Part shown: positions 36,987-53,835 of the stretch, piece by piece
Position numbering within the stretch: the stretch's first letter is position 1
How the letters are laid out: each line of letters begins with the position of its first letter
From: a virus
Strand: one strand, 5' to 3'
Virus record (IMG/VR): IMGVR_UViG_3300030117_006141
Location: 15,616 to 79,615 of that record
Length of the DNA stretch: 64,000 bases
Notes under the pieces: generated by a model
Seen by the model: the letters and a program-made list of their open reading frames with translations, nothing else
The model's database searches: none
Told to the model about the DNA's origin: nothing
Position numbers and translations under genes: made by a program

Positions 36987-37583
36987 CTATTTTAGATCAA
37001 ATATGTAAGTATGCAATTCTTCTCCTTCTCTCATAGTAGTTCTATACTCATAAGAAGTTACGCCTCTCACAGCTTCAATCATTTCTTTTGCTTTATCTAA
37101 TATTGTTATCTCATTTGAAGACAAAGCTAATTTGTCATTTATAACAGTCATTTGGAGTGAACCTGTTTTAGAACCCGGGGTGTCAACAAGATCATCGGGT
37201 AATAACGATTTGCCCTTCTCCAGTCTATCCGTATAATAATGTTTTAGTTTAATAGACAATGATTCCCACCATTTTGCAAATTCGGGTTTAGAGTTCTTAA
37301 ACCATTCAGCTGCTTCATCGTCAGTCAATGCATCCCATACCTCATTAACGTCTGGTAGATTGTGTTCGAGGTGTTTGAACCAATTTATAATCCTATCATA
37401 AGCTTTCTTTTCACTAGATAACCCTGTTGTGTATATAGCATTATATGGTCTGGTAGGATCGAACGTCATCCGTTTATTTGGGTAAGACTTCTTTGGATTA
37501 ATATACTCAACAAAAGTCCAATCCTTATATTTGAATTTGTTTAACATATTATCTTCCCATGTTCCGTTATTATCTGTTATCAT
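36987..37583 (-). CDS. Hypothetical protein
   Basis: 198-aa ORF immediately downstream of the tmRNA. Confidence 0.55.
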   Translation of the reverse strand: MITDNNGTWEDNMLNKFKYKDWTFVEYINPKKSYPNKRMTFDPTRPYNAIYTTGLSSEKKAYDRIINWFKHLEHNLPDVNEVWDALTDDEAAEWFKNSKPEFAKWWESLSIKLKHYYTDRLEKGKSLLPDDLVDTPGSKTGSLQMTVINDKLALSSNEITILDKAKEMIEAVRGVTSYEYRTTMREGEELHTYIFDLK

Positions 37584-37599
37584 ACGCAGTAAATTTTAA

Positions 37600-37830
37600 C
37601 CTCTAGCCTCCGGGATTTTGACGACATGATCCCTGTTCGCCGTTGGGTCAGGGTGCCTATCAGGCAGCCATCGCCATTTCAACTTGTTCGCCAGTTGTTA
37701 CGGTGACCTTCCTTATATCCTTATCATCCTGTCAAATCCGATCATCCCCATGTCGTAAATATCTTTTAGTGGAGATGGAGGGAATCGAACCCTCGTCCAA
37801 GAATGTAGCTAATACAAGTACTAGCGGTCA
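37600..37830 (-). ncRNA. ssrA: Circularly permuted (two-piece) tmRNA
   Basis: Minus strand order: T-arm GAGGGTTCGATTCCCTC + CATCTCC-A (ends 37770), 20-nt intervening segment, 5' end GGGGATG...GGATTTGAC (starts 37749, G3-U70 pair), then tag GGC GAA CAA GTT GAA ATG GCG ATG GCT GCC TGA TAG (37692-37660) = GEQVEMAMAA. Outer ends approximate. Confidence 0.9.
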
Positions 37831-37841
37831 TATATAAATAT

Positions 37842-38084
37842 CTACTTCTTCCTTAATAATTTAACTAGTTTGGCACATTTTTCATATTCCTCTGTTCCGG
37901 TAAAGTAATCTATTAAACTATTAATAGCCTCTTTACCCTCCGGATCGTCTAACATCCAATACGCTTCAGGTAGGCTGTCCCAGTCATAACCTTTAATTAT
38001 AAAGTCATATGTATTACGCATTGCTTCATCAGCCAATTCCTGATCAAGCTCATTATTCTCCATGTCTTTATAAAAGTCTTCCAT
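37842..38084 (-). CDS. Small protein with UVR-like (UvrB/C) motif
   Basis: C-terminal LIDYFTGTEEYEKCAKL. Confidence 0.55.
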   Translation of the reverse strand: MEDFYKDMENNELDQELADEAMRNTYDFIIKGYDWDSLPEAYWMLDDPEGKEAINSLIDYFTGTEEYEKCAKLVKLLRKK

Positions 38085-41151: not shown

Positions 41152-43224
41152 TTATTTTTTTAGAAATAGTTTATTAAGTGTTTTGGCTAATTGAATTAAC
41201 GCATTAACATCAATCGTCTCTGCATCTCTCCCATACATCATTTGGAAGTTTCGAGATCCATAATCTCCTCTTGAAGATATAAAGTAACTTAATACTTTAA
41301 TACCCATCTTTTTAATATCGTTAACCCTTTTTCTTGTATGCTCTGCAGCAGGCTCTCCACCATAGTAGAATCCTTTTGGATTAGCATAAGGCTCTCCATC
41401 ACTAAAGTTAATAAAGTAACTATCCATGTTAGCAGAACTCTGAACCATTATATCTTTAATGGCCTCAAAACATAAACCTTCAGGTGTTAATCCACCAGGA
41501 GATAAATGCTTAAATAATCTTTGGATCTTATTAACATTGTCTGTTCTAGAATCATAGGCCATAAGAACCAATGGAACTTGATTCTGAGTAGTTCTGTAAG
41601 ATATCTGAACATGAATGTTATCGATCATAGAAGCAGCCTTAGCAATAGCTACAGCAGCGATCTGTGTCTTTTCCCATTTAGTTCCACCCATCGATCCACT
41701 AGCATCAATACTAAGGTGAATGTTGGCTGGATTATATTTATCACACATTGTCTGTGTAAAGATTCTCTCTGCGCCAAATCCTAAACTAGCAATTAATCTC
41801 TTATCAATCTTACCAGACTCTAATCTTGTAAACTTAGTGTTTCTTTCTTCACTTCTAACTTTAAGCTTCTTACCAAGCATACGACCCAATCTAAGACCGG
41901 CATTAATATTACCTTGCATATCTTCTCTTTCATATGTTCGAGATACTATATTACTAATAGTTCCTGAATCGATTACTCTCTGACTAAAGTTCTTAATAAC
42001 GATAACATCAGTAGAGCTACCCTTAGAGTGATAGTAGCTTTCATAGTCTTTACCAACTTCTTTAATCTCTGATCCAGATTCTTCTAACGATTGTAATTTT
42101 TTATAATCAGCCTTAGTAATTTTTTTCTTTCTAATATCACCATCTAAGAAATCTTCTTGTTTCTTTATAGCTCTTTTTACTTTAGATTTTTGTGCATCAG
42201 ACAATTCAGGTAAATCATCTGTAGGTGTACACCCGCCTCTTTGGCCTCCACTACTCTTCTTAGCTTCACCTCCCTCAGCTTTGGATCCATCATCATTAGA
42301 TTGACCTTCTGGAGTTTTAGCTTCTTTAGTTCCATTTGGATTAGAACAACTAGCACCTTCTCCCTGACAATCTTTTTCCTCTTCACCTTCTCCCTGACAA
42401 TCTGTATCTTCAGTTGTAGGTGTAGGTAAGTTTCTTTCTACTATTCTAAATATATCAAATGCAACCTCTAATGCTTCATCAGAATTCTTTAATCTACTAA
42501 TACATCTTAAATTAATAGTATTCCAGATATTCATAAATCCAGGTAATGCATTTAGATCACGATTCTCATTTGTGATATTACATATTCTAAACATATAAGA
42601 ATCCCAAGTAAGCTCTCTATACTCTTTAGAAGCTAGAGCTTTATCAATCGACTTATCATTAAAGTATTTATTATATAATGCATGATAGTATCCTTTATAA
42701 CCAGGAGCCGATGTAAATATAAAATTATCAATACGTCTATCTTCTATAATATTTAATAACTGTCTAACTTTACTTACAATATAATTCTCAACCATCCATT
42801 TAGCATCGCTATCATCCTTATCTGAAAAGTATTTATCTTTAATCATTTCCTTAATAGAATTTGGAATAACCATATCCGAGCTTTGTATCAAATCTCTTAA
42901 TGTATTAAAGTTAGTTAACTTAATATGAGAACCCTCATGTAAAGCTAAACCAACAGCAGAATCAAATTCCTTCTCATTTAGATTAGCAGATATAACTACT
43001 CTCTCACCATCAGTATAAGAATCACCACGTTGATCAAATGTAACAGGTATATCTTTACCCGTAACTAAATTTACGAAATTAGCAATAGCTCTTCTATAAC
43101 TAGCTAATCTAATTAAGTGAGCAGTATTATCTTTTGATACTTCTCCAGTTAATACATCGATATCATCATTTAGAAAGTTATCGCTTAACCAGAAACTTGA
43201 ATTGTTGTAATTTGTGTTTAACAT
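41152..43224 (-). CDS. HExxH metallopeptidase-like + vWA domain protein (CobT-like MoxR partner)
   Basis: LALHEGSH, NIIEDRRID, acidic/Gly linker, MIDAS IDASGSM, TPEG, FSDGEP. Confidence 0.85.
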   Translation of the reverse strand: MLNTNYNNSSFWLSDNFLNDDIDVLTGEVSKDNTAHLIRLASYRRAIANFVNLVTGKDIPVTFDQRGDSYTDGERVVISANLNEKEFDSAVGLALHEGSHIKLTNFNTLRDLIQSSDMVIPNSIKEMIKDKYFSDKDDSDAKWMVENYIVSKVRQLLNIIEDRRIDNFIFTSAPGYKGYYHALYNKYFNDKSIDKALASKEYRELTWDSYMFRICNITNENRDLNALPGFMNIWNTINLRCISRLKNSDEALEVAFDIFRIVERNLPTPTTEDTDCQGEGEEEKDCQGEGASCSNPNGTKEAKTPEGQSNDDGSKAEGGEAKKSSGGQRGGCTPTDDLPELSDAQKSKVKRAIKKQEDFLDGDIRKKKITKADYKKLQSLEESGSEIKEVGKDYESYYHSKGSSTDVIVIKNFSQRVIDSGTISNIVSRTYEREDMQGNINAGLRLGRMLGKKLKVRSEERNTKFTRLESGKIDKRLIASLGFGAERIFTQTMCDKYNPANIHLSIDASGSMGGTKWEKTQIAAVAIAKAASMIDNIHVQISYRTTQNQVPLVLMAYDSRTDNVNKIQRLFKHLSPGGLTPEGLCFEAIKDIMVQSSANMDSYFINFSDGEPYANPKGFYYGGEPAAEHTRKRVNDIKKMGIKVLSYFISSRGDYGSRNFQMMYGRDAETIDVNALIQLAKTLNKLFLKK

Positions 43225-45077: not shown

Positions 45078-46229
45078 CTACTCCGCGTCCTCCATATCTT
45101 CGGTATTAAATAGATCCTCATTAGATCCATCGTCACAGTACTTCTGAACTAATTGCTTAACAAACGTTCTCTCACTATCTACTCCTCCGTCGTTACTATA
45201 TTGAGGGTATATAGTTATCTCTGCTGCCTCTCCTAATGTAAAGCCATCATATAGTAGTCCTGCTATCTCTACGGCAGTTCTAGTAGATACCCCAGACTCT
45301 ATACGTCCAGTCTCATTAGCTGCCTCTATACGTGTGTTAGTACATATCTCAGCTACATTATCTAATACCTTACTATCTACCCTTGGATATAATGATTGTA
45401 ATAGATCAGACTCTTCGTCCTTACCTAGTAGGTCTACCTCTATAATAGTAAATCTATCTACTAAGGCTTTATCCATTACTCTAGTACTAGTATATTCGTT
45501 ACCTATATTAGCAGTCGCTATAAAGGTTACTCCGTCAGCTACTTTAATAGTTTCCTGACCTTCAGATTCATCTAGTCTAAGATATCTCTGTCCATAGTCT
45601 AATACAGTCATTAGGATATTCCAAGCATCAGGATGTGCCCTTGATAACTCGTCCATTAGGATTACAGCGTTAGGTGTCTGGATCGCCTTAACGAATAAAG
45701 ACTCGCTAAAGTGTGTGCCCTTCTCCTTGTCGAATTGAACATTACCGATTAGGGTAGCACGAGGATCTTGAGTAGCTCCTAGATTGAAATAGAAGTCAGG
45801 TCGATCCAGACCATTAACTAATGCCTTTGCAGCTAGTGTTTTACCACATCCTGCCGGTCCTACCATCATAATATTCTTACCTCTTACGGCACTTCTTATA
45901 AGGTATTTCCACTTTAACTCAGGCATTTTTAGTGTATTAGGCTTTAGGTCATAAGACGTATTAATGAAATTCATTACCTCTAATTGCTCTTGAGGCACTT
46001 TTTCCGTCTTAGCTGACTCACGATTATGAGCTTTTACAGCCTTATTATACACTGACATTGGTACTTGTTTCCATGTAGTACCTGTAAATTCGATGGCATT
46101 TCCATTATCAGCCACCTTAGATTTCATTTGCGAATACAGTTTTCCTGGTAAACTAGATACAAAATTACCTGTTGCATCCTTTACTTGATACTTACCATCT
46201 ACTCTTTCGACTTTAAATACATTTAACAT
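45078..46229 (-). CDS. MoxR/CobS-like AAA+ ATPase
   Basis: Walker A GPAGCGKT, Walker B ILMDELSRA, FIATAN, MDKALVDRF, STR. Confidence 0.9.
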   Translation of the reverse strand: MLNVFKVERVDGKYQVKDATGNFVSSLPGKLYSQMKSKVADNGNAIEFTGTTWKQVPMSVYNKAVKAHNRESAKTEKVPQEQLEVMNFINTSYDLKPNTLKMPELKWKYLIRSAVRGKNIMMVGPAGCGKTLAAKALVNGLDRPDFYFNLGATQDPRATLIGNVQFDKEKGTHFSESLFVKAIQTPNAVILMDELSRAHPDAWNILMTVLDYGQRYLRLDESEGQETIKVADGVTFIATANIGNEYTSTRVMDKALVDRFTIIEVDLLGKDEESDLLQSLYPRVDSKVLDNVAEICTNTRIEAANETGRIESGVSTRTAVEIAGLLYDGFTLGEAAEITIYPQYSNDGGVDSERTFVKQLVQKYCDDGSNEDLFNTEDMEDAE

Positions 46230-46259
46230 ACACTCTATTTTTTAATTTAACACTCTTTA

Positions 46260-46396
46260 ATAAGAACAGGACCGGGCGCAATTGAGATTTTATGCTAGAT
46301 TAAATTTCTCCTTTTAGCTGTTAGACTCGTCGTCGTGAGCTCCTTTGGCGCATTATTGAGATTTTGCTATTGAATCCTCCCGGATCCCTTTCTTAT
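46260..46396 (-). ncRNA. Candidate structured leader/sRNA upstream of the AAA+ gene
   Basis: Closing stem ATAAGAAAGGGATCCGGG / CCCGGTCCTGTTCTTAT. Two internal copies of TAGCA..AAAATCTCAAT..TGCGCC. Starts just downstream of promoter 46405-46436. Confidence 0.55.
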
Positions 46397-46404
46397 TTAT
46401 ATTA

Positions 46405-46765
46405 TAAATATACGAACTTTTTCGCACATATACAACCTTTTTCTCAGTTATTTTTATAAAGTTATGAACAATCCGAATATAATAACCACTACTCCGAGGG
46501 TCATATATAGCCTATTCATCTCTTTTTTTCCCTGGTTTAGGTCATCTTCTGTGACTAATGGTGGGAATGGGTTTCTATAGTTTGTAATCATAACTTTAAA
46601 TCTTTATATCTTATATATAAAGATACGTAAAATTTTCCAATTATCCAAATTTTTTGACAGGTTTTTTCAGATTTTTTTGTAATTGTTCATAACTTTTTAT
46701 TATTATTATAGGAATAGTCCTCCCAATATAATATAAATATACGAAAAATAAACGTAATTTCCAAA
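46405..46765 (-). promoter_or_regulatory. Three tandem host-type promoters
   Basis: GTTG-N20-TATATTTA (46405-46436), TTTG-N20-TATCTTTA (46618-46649), TTTG-N20-TATATTTA (46734-46765). Confidence 0.75.
46455..46592 (-). CDS. Small membrane peptide (45 aa)
   Basis: Manual translation MITNYRNPFPP...LGVVVIIFGLFITL. Promoter at 46618-46649. Confidence 0.4.
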
Positions 46766-51432: not shown

Positions 51433-51616
51433 TTTACGTTTTCCCTGAACCTTTATAACGTTTACTATTATAAATATGTCGCACCAGTGCAAATAGAGCA
51501 GCACAAATCGCTACCATAAATCCACCTATTATATTATATATAAAATAAGCTCCTCGCATACCCCAATATATAAATCCTAGACATAATATTATACTTATCA
51601 TTTAATTTTATTTTTG

Positions 51617-51690
51617 TGGAGAATATCGGAGTCGAACCGATGACCTCTTGGATGCAAACCAAGCGCTCTAGCCAGCTGAGCTAATTCCCC
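51617..51690 (-). tRNA. tRNA-Ala(UGC)
   Basis: GGGGAATTAGCTCAGCTGGCTAGAGCGCTTGGTTTGCATCCAAGAGGTCATCGGTTCGACTCCGATATTCTCCA. G3-U70, anticodon TGC, CCA not fully encoded. Confidence 0.95.
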
Positions 51691-52448: not shown

Positions 52449-53735
52449 TTATACTGTTCTACCATTTTCGTAAATATGTTTTACTGTTGGAAATCTTAAT
52501 GATATTCCACCATCTTGATTCTTTGTCTCTTCAAAGTATTGAACCGTAATAGTCTTACCCAAGATCTTACTATGATCTTTACCGAACTCTTTTCTTTGTT
52601 CTAAAGAGAATCCTGATCCAACTCCAACCTGATGACCTTTATGTTTAATCATAATTTGGCTTAAAGCATTTATAGTCTTTTCTTTACCTTCTGATACTAT
52701 TCTAATATCTCCATTAGTAGCTCCCATAACCGTATATTCTTCATCATGGAACTTCTTAACCTTTAATAGATTATTAGATCTCTTACCTTCATATGCTACA
52801 TTCTTTCTTAACATAACACCTTCCCAATTATTATCAGCAGACATTTGAACCCATGTATCAAAATGATCATCACCTGTTATAACAAATTGCTGTAGATATT
52901 CTATATACGTAGAATCGGTTCTACTAATCCAAGATCTTAACATATGTAATCTATCTTCTAAATTAATAGATTCATCACCATTAAATACATTTAAAGATAC
53001 CATATCAAATATCTTAAATACTGGATTCTCGATAGTGTGATCTTTCTTTTTAATCTGTTTCATCACACTTTGAAAATCTTCATTACCATTTTCATCTACT
53101 AAACATATCTCACCATCAAATACAACATTAATAATATTAGTATCTTCAATAGCTTTCTTTACATTATCTAATGTAGTAAATTCATTTCCTTGTCTAGAAT
53201 ATAATTTACAATTACCTTCTTCATCGACAATAGCTAAACATCTTACACCATCTAATTTTCTAGAAGCATACCAAGTATCATTCCAATCTACTAACTTAGG
53301 ATTATATGAATTAGCTAAAGCTACTTTGAATTCAGGTATTAAATTAGGTATAACCTTATTAATAACAGATTCAGATGCTCTTAATTCTATATTTCTATCT
53401 AATATATTATAGATTAAATCGGCATAATCTTTATTAGCCGTTACGAAACCATTTACCAATGCTATAGCATCATGACCTGTATATTTTCTATTTCTCAGAT
53501 CGTCTAACATATCAAAAATATTTTCATATACATTATACTTAAATAATCCAGAATTTTTCTTACAATTCTTACTTGTAACATGATATTTGAAATATGGATT
53601 ATAAGTGTAGTGTAATACTTTTGTAATAAACGAATCATCTTTTATAGATTTGATGATTTCTTTTTTCTCATTCAGAGATGATGTAGATTTCATTTTATCT
53701 ACAAATTCCTGTAACCTTTTTAATTCTTTTAGCAT
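52449..53735 (-). CDS. lig: ATP-dependent DNA ligase
   Basis: KLDGVR, FDGEI, IFD, EGVMLR, LLKVK, GVGSGF, SLRFP. Likely start MLKELK at 53735. Confidence 0.93.
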   Translation of the reverse strand: MLKELKRLQEFVDKMKSTSSLNEKKEIIKSIKDDSFITKVLHYTYNPYFKYHVTSKNCKKNSGLFKYNVYENIFDMLDDLRNRKYTGHDAIALVNGFVTANKDYADLIYNILDRNIELRASESVINKVIPNLIPEFKVALANSYNPKLVDWNDTWYASRKLDGVRCLAIVDEEGNCKLYSRQGNEFTTLDNVKKAIEDTNIINVVFDGEICLVDENGNEDFQSVMKQIKKKDHTIENPVFKIFDMVSLNVFNGDESINLEDRLHMLRSWISRTDSTYIEYLQQFVITGDDHFDTWVQMSADNNWEGVMLRKNVAYEGKRSNNLLKVKKFHDEEYTVMGATNGDIRIVSEGKEKTINALSQIMIKHKGHQVGVGSGFSLEQRKEFGKDHSKILGKTITVQYFEETKNQDGGISLRFPTVKHIYENGRTV

Positions 53736-53770
53736 ATCTATATCTTTAATTAACACTCTTATTTATAATA

Positions 53771-53835
53771 TAAATATACGTAAAATAATTGAATTATCCA
53801 AATATTTTAACAGGTTTTTTCAAAAGTTATGAACA
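53771..53835 (-). promoter_or_regulatory. Host-type (Bacteroidota -33/-7) promoter plus upstream TGTTCATAAC box; exemplar of a 15-copy family
   Basis: TTTG-N20-TATATTTA. Same spacing at 10900, 34131, 36164, 39105, 43244, 43403, 44702, 46405, 46618, 46734, 48778, 50523, 52392, 54592. Confidence 0.8.

Follow-up and report, generated by a model that had tools for sequence, protein, structure and literature searches.

On its minus strand, the window (the whole 64-kb stretch of viral DNA that was analyzed) carries a structured RNA element at 46397–46259, directly 3′ of a promoter. Comparison with other contigs indicates that this element is a conserved folded RNA and a movable cassette of marine phages that has apparently spread laterally among them. 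Its closing stem, P1, carries a largely unpaired and almost invariant interior, in which a variable hairpin, P3, lies between two facing modules of ~30 nt. About 25 homologues, covariation in P1 and P3, and the stability of cognate P1 duplexes place the element beyond chance, the statistics of the single sequence being weak. An earlier note on this DNA had proposed a structured RNA, not yet annotated, whose closing stem bears two equivalent modules, and the comparative data uphold that description and point to selection on the fold. As to what the element does, we tentatively favor, at somewhat less than even confidence, an accessory RNA cassette exchanged between phages, whose invariant loops, displayed on a stable stem, bind a trans-acting factor, probably one of the host.

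Organization of the element

Read along the minus strand, the element consists of P1, two near-identical modules of the form UAGCA..AAAAUCUCAAU..UGC, and the middle hairpin P3. The 5′ arm of P1 (46379–46397), recognized from an inverted repeat, contains the core CCGGG (46383–46379), and its outer part pairs with the leader sequence AAUAAG. Module 1 (46349–46378) begins with the head AGGAUUCAA and continues with UAGC, AAAAUCUC, and AAUAAUGCG. It is followed by P3 (46310–46348), which is closed by CC/GG, and by module 2 (46277–46309), comprising the head AGAAAUUUAAUC, UAGC, AUAAAAUCUC, and AAUUGCG. The 3′ arm of P1 (46259–46276), assigned from the inverted repeat and from covariation, reads CCCGG (46276–46272) and then UCCUGUUCUUAUU. 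Over its 18 nt, the closing inverted repeat (46397–46380 with 46276–46259) is 78% complementary. The repeat copies themselves are UAGCAAAAUCUCAAUAAUGCGCC (46369–46347) and UAGCAUAAAAUCUCAAUUGCGCC (46297–46275), which share an exact 11-mer at a spacing of 74, and the window copy also has three GGAG motifs and, in the linker between the modules, one hairpin. The element, its repeat copies, the GGAG motifs, and the linker hairpin had all been placed correctly in the earlier note, on the minus strand.

Folding of the window sequence alone gave an MFE z-score of −1.37, a weak value, and the 11-mer of the module is not enriched within the 64-kb window. A terminator scan of the window found no intrinsic terminator at 46259, the 3′ flank being UUAAAGAG. 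No hammerhead core (CUGANGA, GAAA, and a UH cleavage site) was found around the window copy; such cores are present only around copies in relatives. No contig from two RNA libraries lies over the element, which, for assembled contigs as opposed to reads, is evidence neither way.

Searches against known RNA families returned nothing that accounts for the element. With Rfam 15, the whole window at gathering threshold yielded only tRNA and a permuted tmRNA, with nothing at the element; 1 kb around the element at E ≤ 10 yielded one chance match to a snoRNA (20.8 bits against a threshold of 60); and the relatives L087 and L092, together with 12 more loci, yielded only tRNAs. ARAGORN also reported nothing at the element, and its unannotated status stands. 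A 2023 catalogue of viral structured RNAs comprises 8,495 unnamed candidates, which may or may not include the element (PMC10690425). Two other RNA genes were noted in the window. A tRNA-Ala(UGC) (51616–51690, minus strand) is 5 kb away from the element, in contrast to the adjacent tRNA genes of the tRNA-linked relatives. At 37569–37861 lies a tmRNA gene of the circularly permuted, two-piece type (minus strand; ARAGORN tag GEQVEMAMAA; Rfam RF04321, 62.3 bits against a threshold of 47).

Comparative evidence for the fold

Exact-pattern scans with parts of the module core recovered, beside chance hits, about 25 true relatives in marine viral and metagenome contigs. Their shared plan is P1, module 1, P3, module 2, and P1′, and their length is about 60–140 nt across one- and two-module forms. 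L099 and L105 carry a single module in a hairpin loop. In L107 and L109, module 1 is followed by a short hairpin, whose GGU/ACC or AGU/ACU pairing is compensated, and then by no more than the 3′ part of module 2. The alignment comprised 18 distinct two-module sequences.

In the model-fitted alignment of these sequences, compensatory changes occur at all seven pairs of P1 and at both base pairs of P3. Pairs occupy 97% of the pairing cells, compared with 82% in shuffles and 33–50% with the partners slid, and the covariation score was reached by none of 500 shuffles. A measure independent of the alignment agrees, cognate P1 duplexes standing at −14.5 kcal/mol and non-cognate ones at −7.9 kcal/mol. 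The RNAalifold prediction comprises P1 and the basal part of P3, together with two GCA/UGC stems. Across the relatives, P1 spans 7–18 bp, with energies of −7 to −19 kcal/mol.

P3 is highly variable and alternates between tetraloops typical of RNA and long hairpins, occurring as CC-UUCG-GG, CC-GAAA-GG, forms with CAAG or UUAG loops, ACUC-AAUA-GAGU, and hairpins of 24–39 nt; in a contig of marine DNA run X1 that matches the window, CGAA (UUCG on the strand of the element) replaces 35 nt between 46311 and 46347. The P3 lengths of 8, 10, 12, 24, 27, 28, 29, and 39 nt shift the reading frame. No frame is kept across the homologues, and the AUG in module 1 opens different frames of 10–27 codons in different loci. 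Because these length changes break any frame, a translated peptide, which the earlier note had set against its RNA reading, does not explain the repeat. Part of the diversity of P1 could be due not to selection on pairing but to insertion of the element into various hairpins that already existed; the variation of P3 is not explicable in this way.

Within the interior, UAGCAUAAA and UCAAUUGC of module 2 are invariant in the 18 sequences, and module 2 was not required by the patterns that found most of the relatives. The invariance of module 1 is partly an artifact, since its core was demanded by the search patterns. The GCA/UGC stems never vary and thus give no covariation signal for or against them. 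Candidate pseudoknot helices, in which AGAUU or GAGA of the head would pair with AAUCU or UCUC of the core, show no compensation and are broken in three to six of the 18 sequences. A rod model that pairs GCAA of module 1 with UUGC of module 2, and AUGC with GCAU, lies within 1–2.5 kcal/mol of a two-hairpin model, and only the rod fits L107 and L109; in this model, a pseudo-symmetric internal loop would bring the two AAUCUCAA strands face to face. The interior of the compact relative L117 folds no better than shuffled sequence (z = +0.25), although it is the conserved part.

Promoter and insertion into a standard leader

The promoter (46405–46436, minus strand) comprises GTTG (46436–46433), a 20-nt spacer, and TATATTTA (46412–46405), and its position right before the closing stem is as the earlier note had described. 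It is credible as a promoter, being one of seven copies of an early-type promoter–leader consensus of ~45 nt, all on the minus strand (53780, 48787, 46743, 46627, 46414, 43412, and 43253) and each ahead of a gene, with the consensus TTTGGA, a spacer, CGTATATTTA, and then AUAAAUAA. Genes behind this unit include those for a DNA ligase (52449–53756), a CobT-like vWA protein (41152–43224), and MoxR. A sigma-70 scan alone did not list the promoter of the element; the same promoter box is found ahead of MoxR in related phages. Its layout (TTTG, ~20 nt, TAnnTTTA) suggests the Bacteroidota type (−33 TTTG/−7 TAnnTTTG), and the carriers are probably phages of Bacteroidota.

The standard leader starts with the conserved AUAAAUAAG (46392–46400, minus strand); this 9-mer also stands behind the box at 53780, and the other paralogous promoters have close variants of it in that place. 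We infer a transcription start at about 46392–46400. In the leader at 53780, AUAAAUAAG is joined directly to AGUGUUAA, and the MoxR leader is identical except that 46391–46255 lies in between. The MoxR leader of L002 is without the inserted block. By this comparison of leaders, the element is a clean 137-nt insertion (46255–46391, minus strand) into the standard seven-copy promoter–leader unit, with borders that are ambiguous by 3 nt (AAG on both sides). The metagenome contigs L121 and L122 are nearly the same as the window, promoter included, and in L122 the MoxR gene is seen downstream as well.

One contig from an oligo-dT RNA library (run X19) is 96% identical to the 5′ end of MoxR, and the match ends exactly at 46259. 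Upstream of 46259/46260, in gene orientation, this contig has CUGAGGGUCUACCAUA instead of the element, and as it departs at the 3′ border of the element, a close relative has other sequence at that site. GUC-UA within CUGAGGGUCUACCAUA recalls a hammerhead cleavage site; 16 nt are too short to show one.

Relationship to the MoxR gene

The gene downstream of the element (45078–46229, minus strand) encodes an AAA+ ATPase of the MoxR/CobS type (Pfam AAA_5, bpMoxR, and CbbQ_C), a protein with only distant cultured relatives. The earlier note had linked the element to this gene. As a statement of position this is right; as a specific link it fails, since the element was absent, by BLAST and covariance model, from 80 MoxR loci of related phages, where the promoter box is present and the leader is only 20–45 nt, and since the five other records carrying the element have no MoxR match. 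The suggestion of an autoregulatory leader falls on the same two observations. The covariation analysis upstream of moxR genes that the earlier note had suggested is impossible for these 80 homologues, because the element is not there. MoxR thus appears, from these sequence comparisons, to be a neighbor of the element rather than its partner, and for annotation the long MoxR leader of this phage would be read as an inserted RNA gene and not as a control region of MoxR. The CobT-like vWA protein mentioned above (minus strand; PHROG 'cobalamin biosynthesis protein', E = 2.6e-10) is encoded 2 kb downstream of the MoxR/CobS-like ATPase. Such pairs of a MoxR/CobS-like ATPase and a CobT-like vWA protein are usual in marine phages.

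Distribution and genomic contexts

The element occurs as one copy per record in six records, namely the 79.6-kb record of the window and five others; a weak second match in G002 proved to be coding sequence. BLASTP at 1e-6 found no protein common to all six carrier records, which are fragments 22–88% complete. G000 and G002 are kin, G001, G003, and G005 have a single protein in common, and none of the clusters listed links G004 to another record. Clustering of neighboring genes revealed no common neighbor among the loci, ORFs clustering only within subgroups. Six carriers without a common protein, five of them without a MoxR match, argue for lateral spread and for a partner that is not encoded beside the element. 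Neither the region nor a compact relative matched any of 50,697 GenBank phage records by BLAST.

The element invariably runs in the same direction as the genes on either side. In all contexts but that of the window lineage, where it follows a promoter, a device that forms 3′ ends (a hammerhead cleavage site, tRNA 5′ end, U-run, or terminator) lies within 0–25 nt. In at least eight distinct relatives, among them L087 (with its duplicates L125 and L132), L099, L107, L115, L118, L131, and L133, the element forms the distal stem III of a complete type I hammerhead. The parts follow in the order stem I (AGUAAUA/UAUUACU), CUGANGA, stem II, GAAA, stem III, GUC, and the stem I partner, and RNAfold returned the three-way junction as the minimum-energy structure. 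Rfam at E ≤ 0.01–0.1 did not report the hammerheads of L087, L099, L107, L115, L118, and L131. Other copies (L092, L113, L114, L119, L120, and L129) lie 8–15 nt 5′ of a tRNA-Glu(UUC) or a tRNA read as Arg(UCU), and P1 is a perfect 10-bp helix in most of these tRNA-linked copies. A U-run follows the element in L105, L109, and L236, and a GUAA-loop terminator follows it in L126 and L128.

A hammerhead family of marine phages with a near-fixed stem I (AGUAAUA/UAUUACU) was observed in at least 120 viral contigs (L261–L377; L107:12353–12408). Stem III in this family is usually 13–22 nt long, often with a UUCG loop, and occasionally contains unrelated inserts of 41–90 nt; the element was found in it only in L087 among the matches listed. 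Given this rarity in an abundant family, the ribozyme is better regarded as a permissive host of the element than as its partner. Other passenger inserts in stem III, apparently structured, occur in L285 and L330 (45 nt) and in L261, L377, L322, and L279 (57–89 nt). Those of L285 and L330 have common ends, CUAGA...UCGAUGGUC, and perhaps represent another small motif.

In L092, L113, L117, L119, and L120, P1 reads AGUAA-AGGAG/CUCCU-UUACU. The P1 of tRNA-linked copies resembles a hammerhead that has lost its catalytic core, with stem I (AGUAA/UUACU) joined to stem III. This is a hint that the hammerhead and tRNA contexts derive from one another.

Proposed function and alternatives

We see the element as a self-contained structured RNA of about 85–140 nt and propose that its helices serve only as a scaffold and that it works through the invariant A-rich UCUC loops; a P1 so long and stable suggests a scaffold rather than a switch. 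What these loops would bind is most likely a trans factor, probably some conserved protein of the host. That the carriers share no protein makes a host factor the more likely, and the pseudo-two-fold layout suggests that the partner is possibly a dimer. A protein, perhaps a dimer, would be the simplest partner, and a small-molecule ligand or a base-pairing target may take its place. Bound to such a factor, the RNA would serve as a decoy, as a recruitment platform, or perhaps in another capacity. In the phage of the window, the cassette would have been inserted a few bases past the start of a standard early-type transcript, and from this location the element would form the 5′ end of the MoxR mRNA. 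In the other phages, it would be left at the 3′ end of an RNA by self-cleavage of the hammerhead, by an RNase P cut at the adjoining tRNA, or by termination. Its action would not concern MoxR.

Since the element always sits at or near a predicted RNA end, it could instead be a purely structural module, a compact and stable domain that has no specific partner and either shields the ends of transcripts (5′ in this phage, 3′ in others) from ribonucleases or marks sites of processing. The long and stable P1 would suit such a role, as would the tolerance of hammerhead stem III for many unrelated inserts of 41–90 nt. We consider this unlikely, because a simple hairpin would suffice for the purpose and because ~20 invariant unpaired nt per module, kept across unrelated phages, imply sequence-specific recognition.

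Quite unlikely, too, is a cis-acting regulatory leader, either a riboswitch or a protein-dependent attenuator, in which folding of the interior decides the formation of P1 and hence MoxR read-through, hammerhead cleavage, or termination. P1 is physically identical with hammerhead stem III, and in L105, L109, and L236 with the stem before the U-runs. Conserved loops and variable helices are typical of aptamers, and, as in riboswitches, invariant cores are held here by covarying helices (P1 and P3). The purine-rich GAGA/GGAG strand can also pair alternatively with UCUC of the core, this 4-bp GAGA:UCUC pairing being the one alternative that exists. However, the head-to-core helices lack compensation, and P1, although shared with stem III or the stem of a U-run, is at 7–18 bp and −7 to −19 kcal/mol too stable for ligand dependence. 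The downstream genes also differ between loci (MoxR, tRNA-Glu/Arg, and various ORFs that cluster only within subgroups), so that recurrent association with the genes of one pathway, as expected of a riboswitch, is absent. No terminator-like site follows the window copy, and no riboswitch family matches. It is chiefly the stability of P1 and the variety of gene contexts that make a riboswitch-like switch unlikely.

Invariant, pyrimidine-containing loops presented on stems would also be expected of a base-pairing small RNA whose exposed AAUCUCAA loops act as seeds against purine-rich GAGA or Shine-Dalgarno-like sites in host or phage mRNAs. Such an RNA would carry two seeds, and several relatives have a terminator-like 3′ end. 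We assign this a low probability; complementary sites are not enriched in the window, where five matches were found against 5.4 expected.

Equally improbable is a selfish cassette that confers no benefit on the phage and spreads by inserting itself into hairpin loops and leaders. The clean 137-nt insertion with its 3-nt ambiguous border, the patchy occurrence across lineages, and the location in permissive sites such as the loop of hammerhead stem III are all in keeping with it. The single copy per record speaks against it, as do the lack of conserved terminal repeats, the arms of P1 differing between loci, and the lack of a common neighbor in the clustering of neighboring genes; moreover, the covariation of the internal P3 shows selection on an RNA fold. 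A MITE or DNA transposon remnant was rejected, there being one copy in each of six records and terminal arms that differ between loci.

Least probable, and very unlikely in our view, is mimicry of a specific host RNA repeat, whether that of a ToxI-like type III antitoxin or that of a CRISPR array (as in an RNA anti-CRISPR), which the earlier note had entertained. The element has two direct repeats with a period of 41–74 nt behind a promoter, and its 9-nt AGAAAUUCA may resemble the ToxI cleavage junction. Phage RNA decoys of this kind are known (PMC3475682). The exact 20-nt core, however, had no match in one genome each of 185,579 prokaryote species except a single hit, which was presumed to be due to chance and was not inspected. 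This argues against the repeat of a sampled host, although the repeat of an unsampled host may remain. The two repeats do not lie directly upstream of a gene for a ToxN/AbiQ-type endoribonuclease, as they would in a type III toxin–antitoxin locus, the neighboring gene encoding an AAA+ ATPase and the next gene differing at other loci. A closing stem and middle hairpin are foreign to such arrays, and single-module forms exist.

The earlier idea of a bivalent decoy or anti-defense RNA fits the patchy distribution across lineages and the invariant loops. Taken to its furthest extent, this reading would make the element a new class of horizontally exchanged phage RNA, a pseudo-two-fold-symmetric decoy that traps a dimeric factor of the host (a defense nuclease or an RNA-binding regulator, for instance) and is plugged into permissive RNA sites, namely hammerhead stem III, transcript starts, and tRNA leaders. 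So specific a proposal is unlikely to hold in full; if true, it would describe an RNA-only counter-defense or host-takeover gene that copies no host repeat. More generally, should the loops bind a host factor, marine phages would possess an RNA-only tool of host manipulation or anti-defense. Phage non-coding RNAs with proven roles are few, and the element is a compact candidate (60–140 nt) with clear comparative support. Its small size, its natural one- and two-module forms, and its fusions to a self-cleaving ribozyme make it easy to synthesize and probe. In addition, stem III of the abundant marine hammerhead family serves as a docking site for other RNA domains.

Comparison with known RNAs

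The species 1 and 2 RNAs of phage T4 (RNA C and D) are small stable RNAs encoded in phage tRNA clusters. Like them, the element is a phage-encoded non-coding RNA, which at ~100–140 nt may lie beside tRNA genes, where tRNA processing would set one end; the likeness is one of description only, and the element differs in occurring also without tRNAs (in the window and in hammerhead contexts) and in having two-module repeats. GOLLD and ROOL are large prophage RNAs of 400–800 nt, both in Rfam. They resemble the element as orphan structured phage RNAs, often located by tRNA genes, with conserved loops and variable helices, whereas the element is only 60–140 nt long and has no Rfam match. A further comparison is with preQ1-I, a small pseudoknot aptamer, which is similar in module size, in a possible H-type topology (head AGAUU with AAUCU, and GCA with UGC), and in the UAGC tetranucleotide. 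In contrast to preQ1-I, the element has no Rfam match at E ≤ 10 over 1 kb, its corresponding helices are uncompensated, a long P1 encloses it, and it has no consistent gene association.

RNA anti-CRISPRs are phage RNA decoys. So is pseudo-ToxI of phage phiTE (PMC3475682). Decoys of these kinds are short repeated phage RNA units of patchy distribution that titrate a host protein, which the element may do as well; they differ in that they copy a host repeat, whereas no host-like sequence was found for the element, which is held by a closing stem and a middle hairpin that covary. Type I hammerhead ribozymes occur in phages (PMC3088659), and in at least eight distinct relatives the element makes up the distal part of stem III within a complete one. 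The window copy, by contrast, has no hammerhead core, and the marine family mostly has a plain stem III of 13–22 nt. By the analogy of their behavior, the nearest counterparts of the element would be the small RNAs of the T4 tRNA cluster and the tRNA-adjacent GOLLD and ROOL RNAs, with the phage RNA decoys as a further possible analogue.
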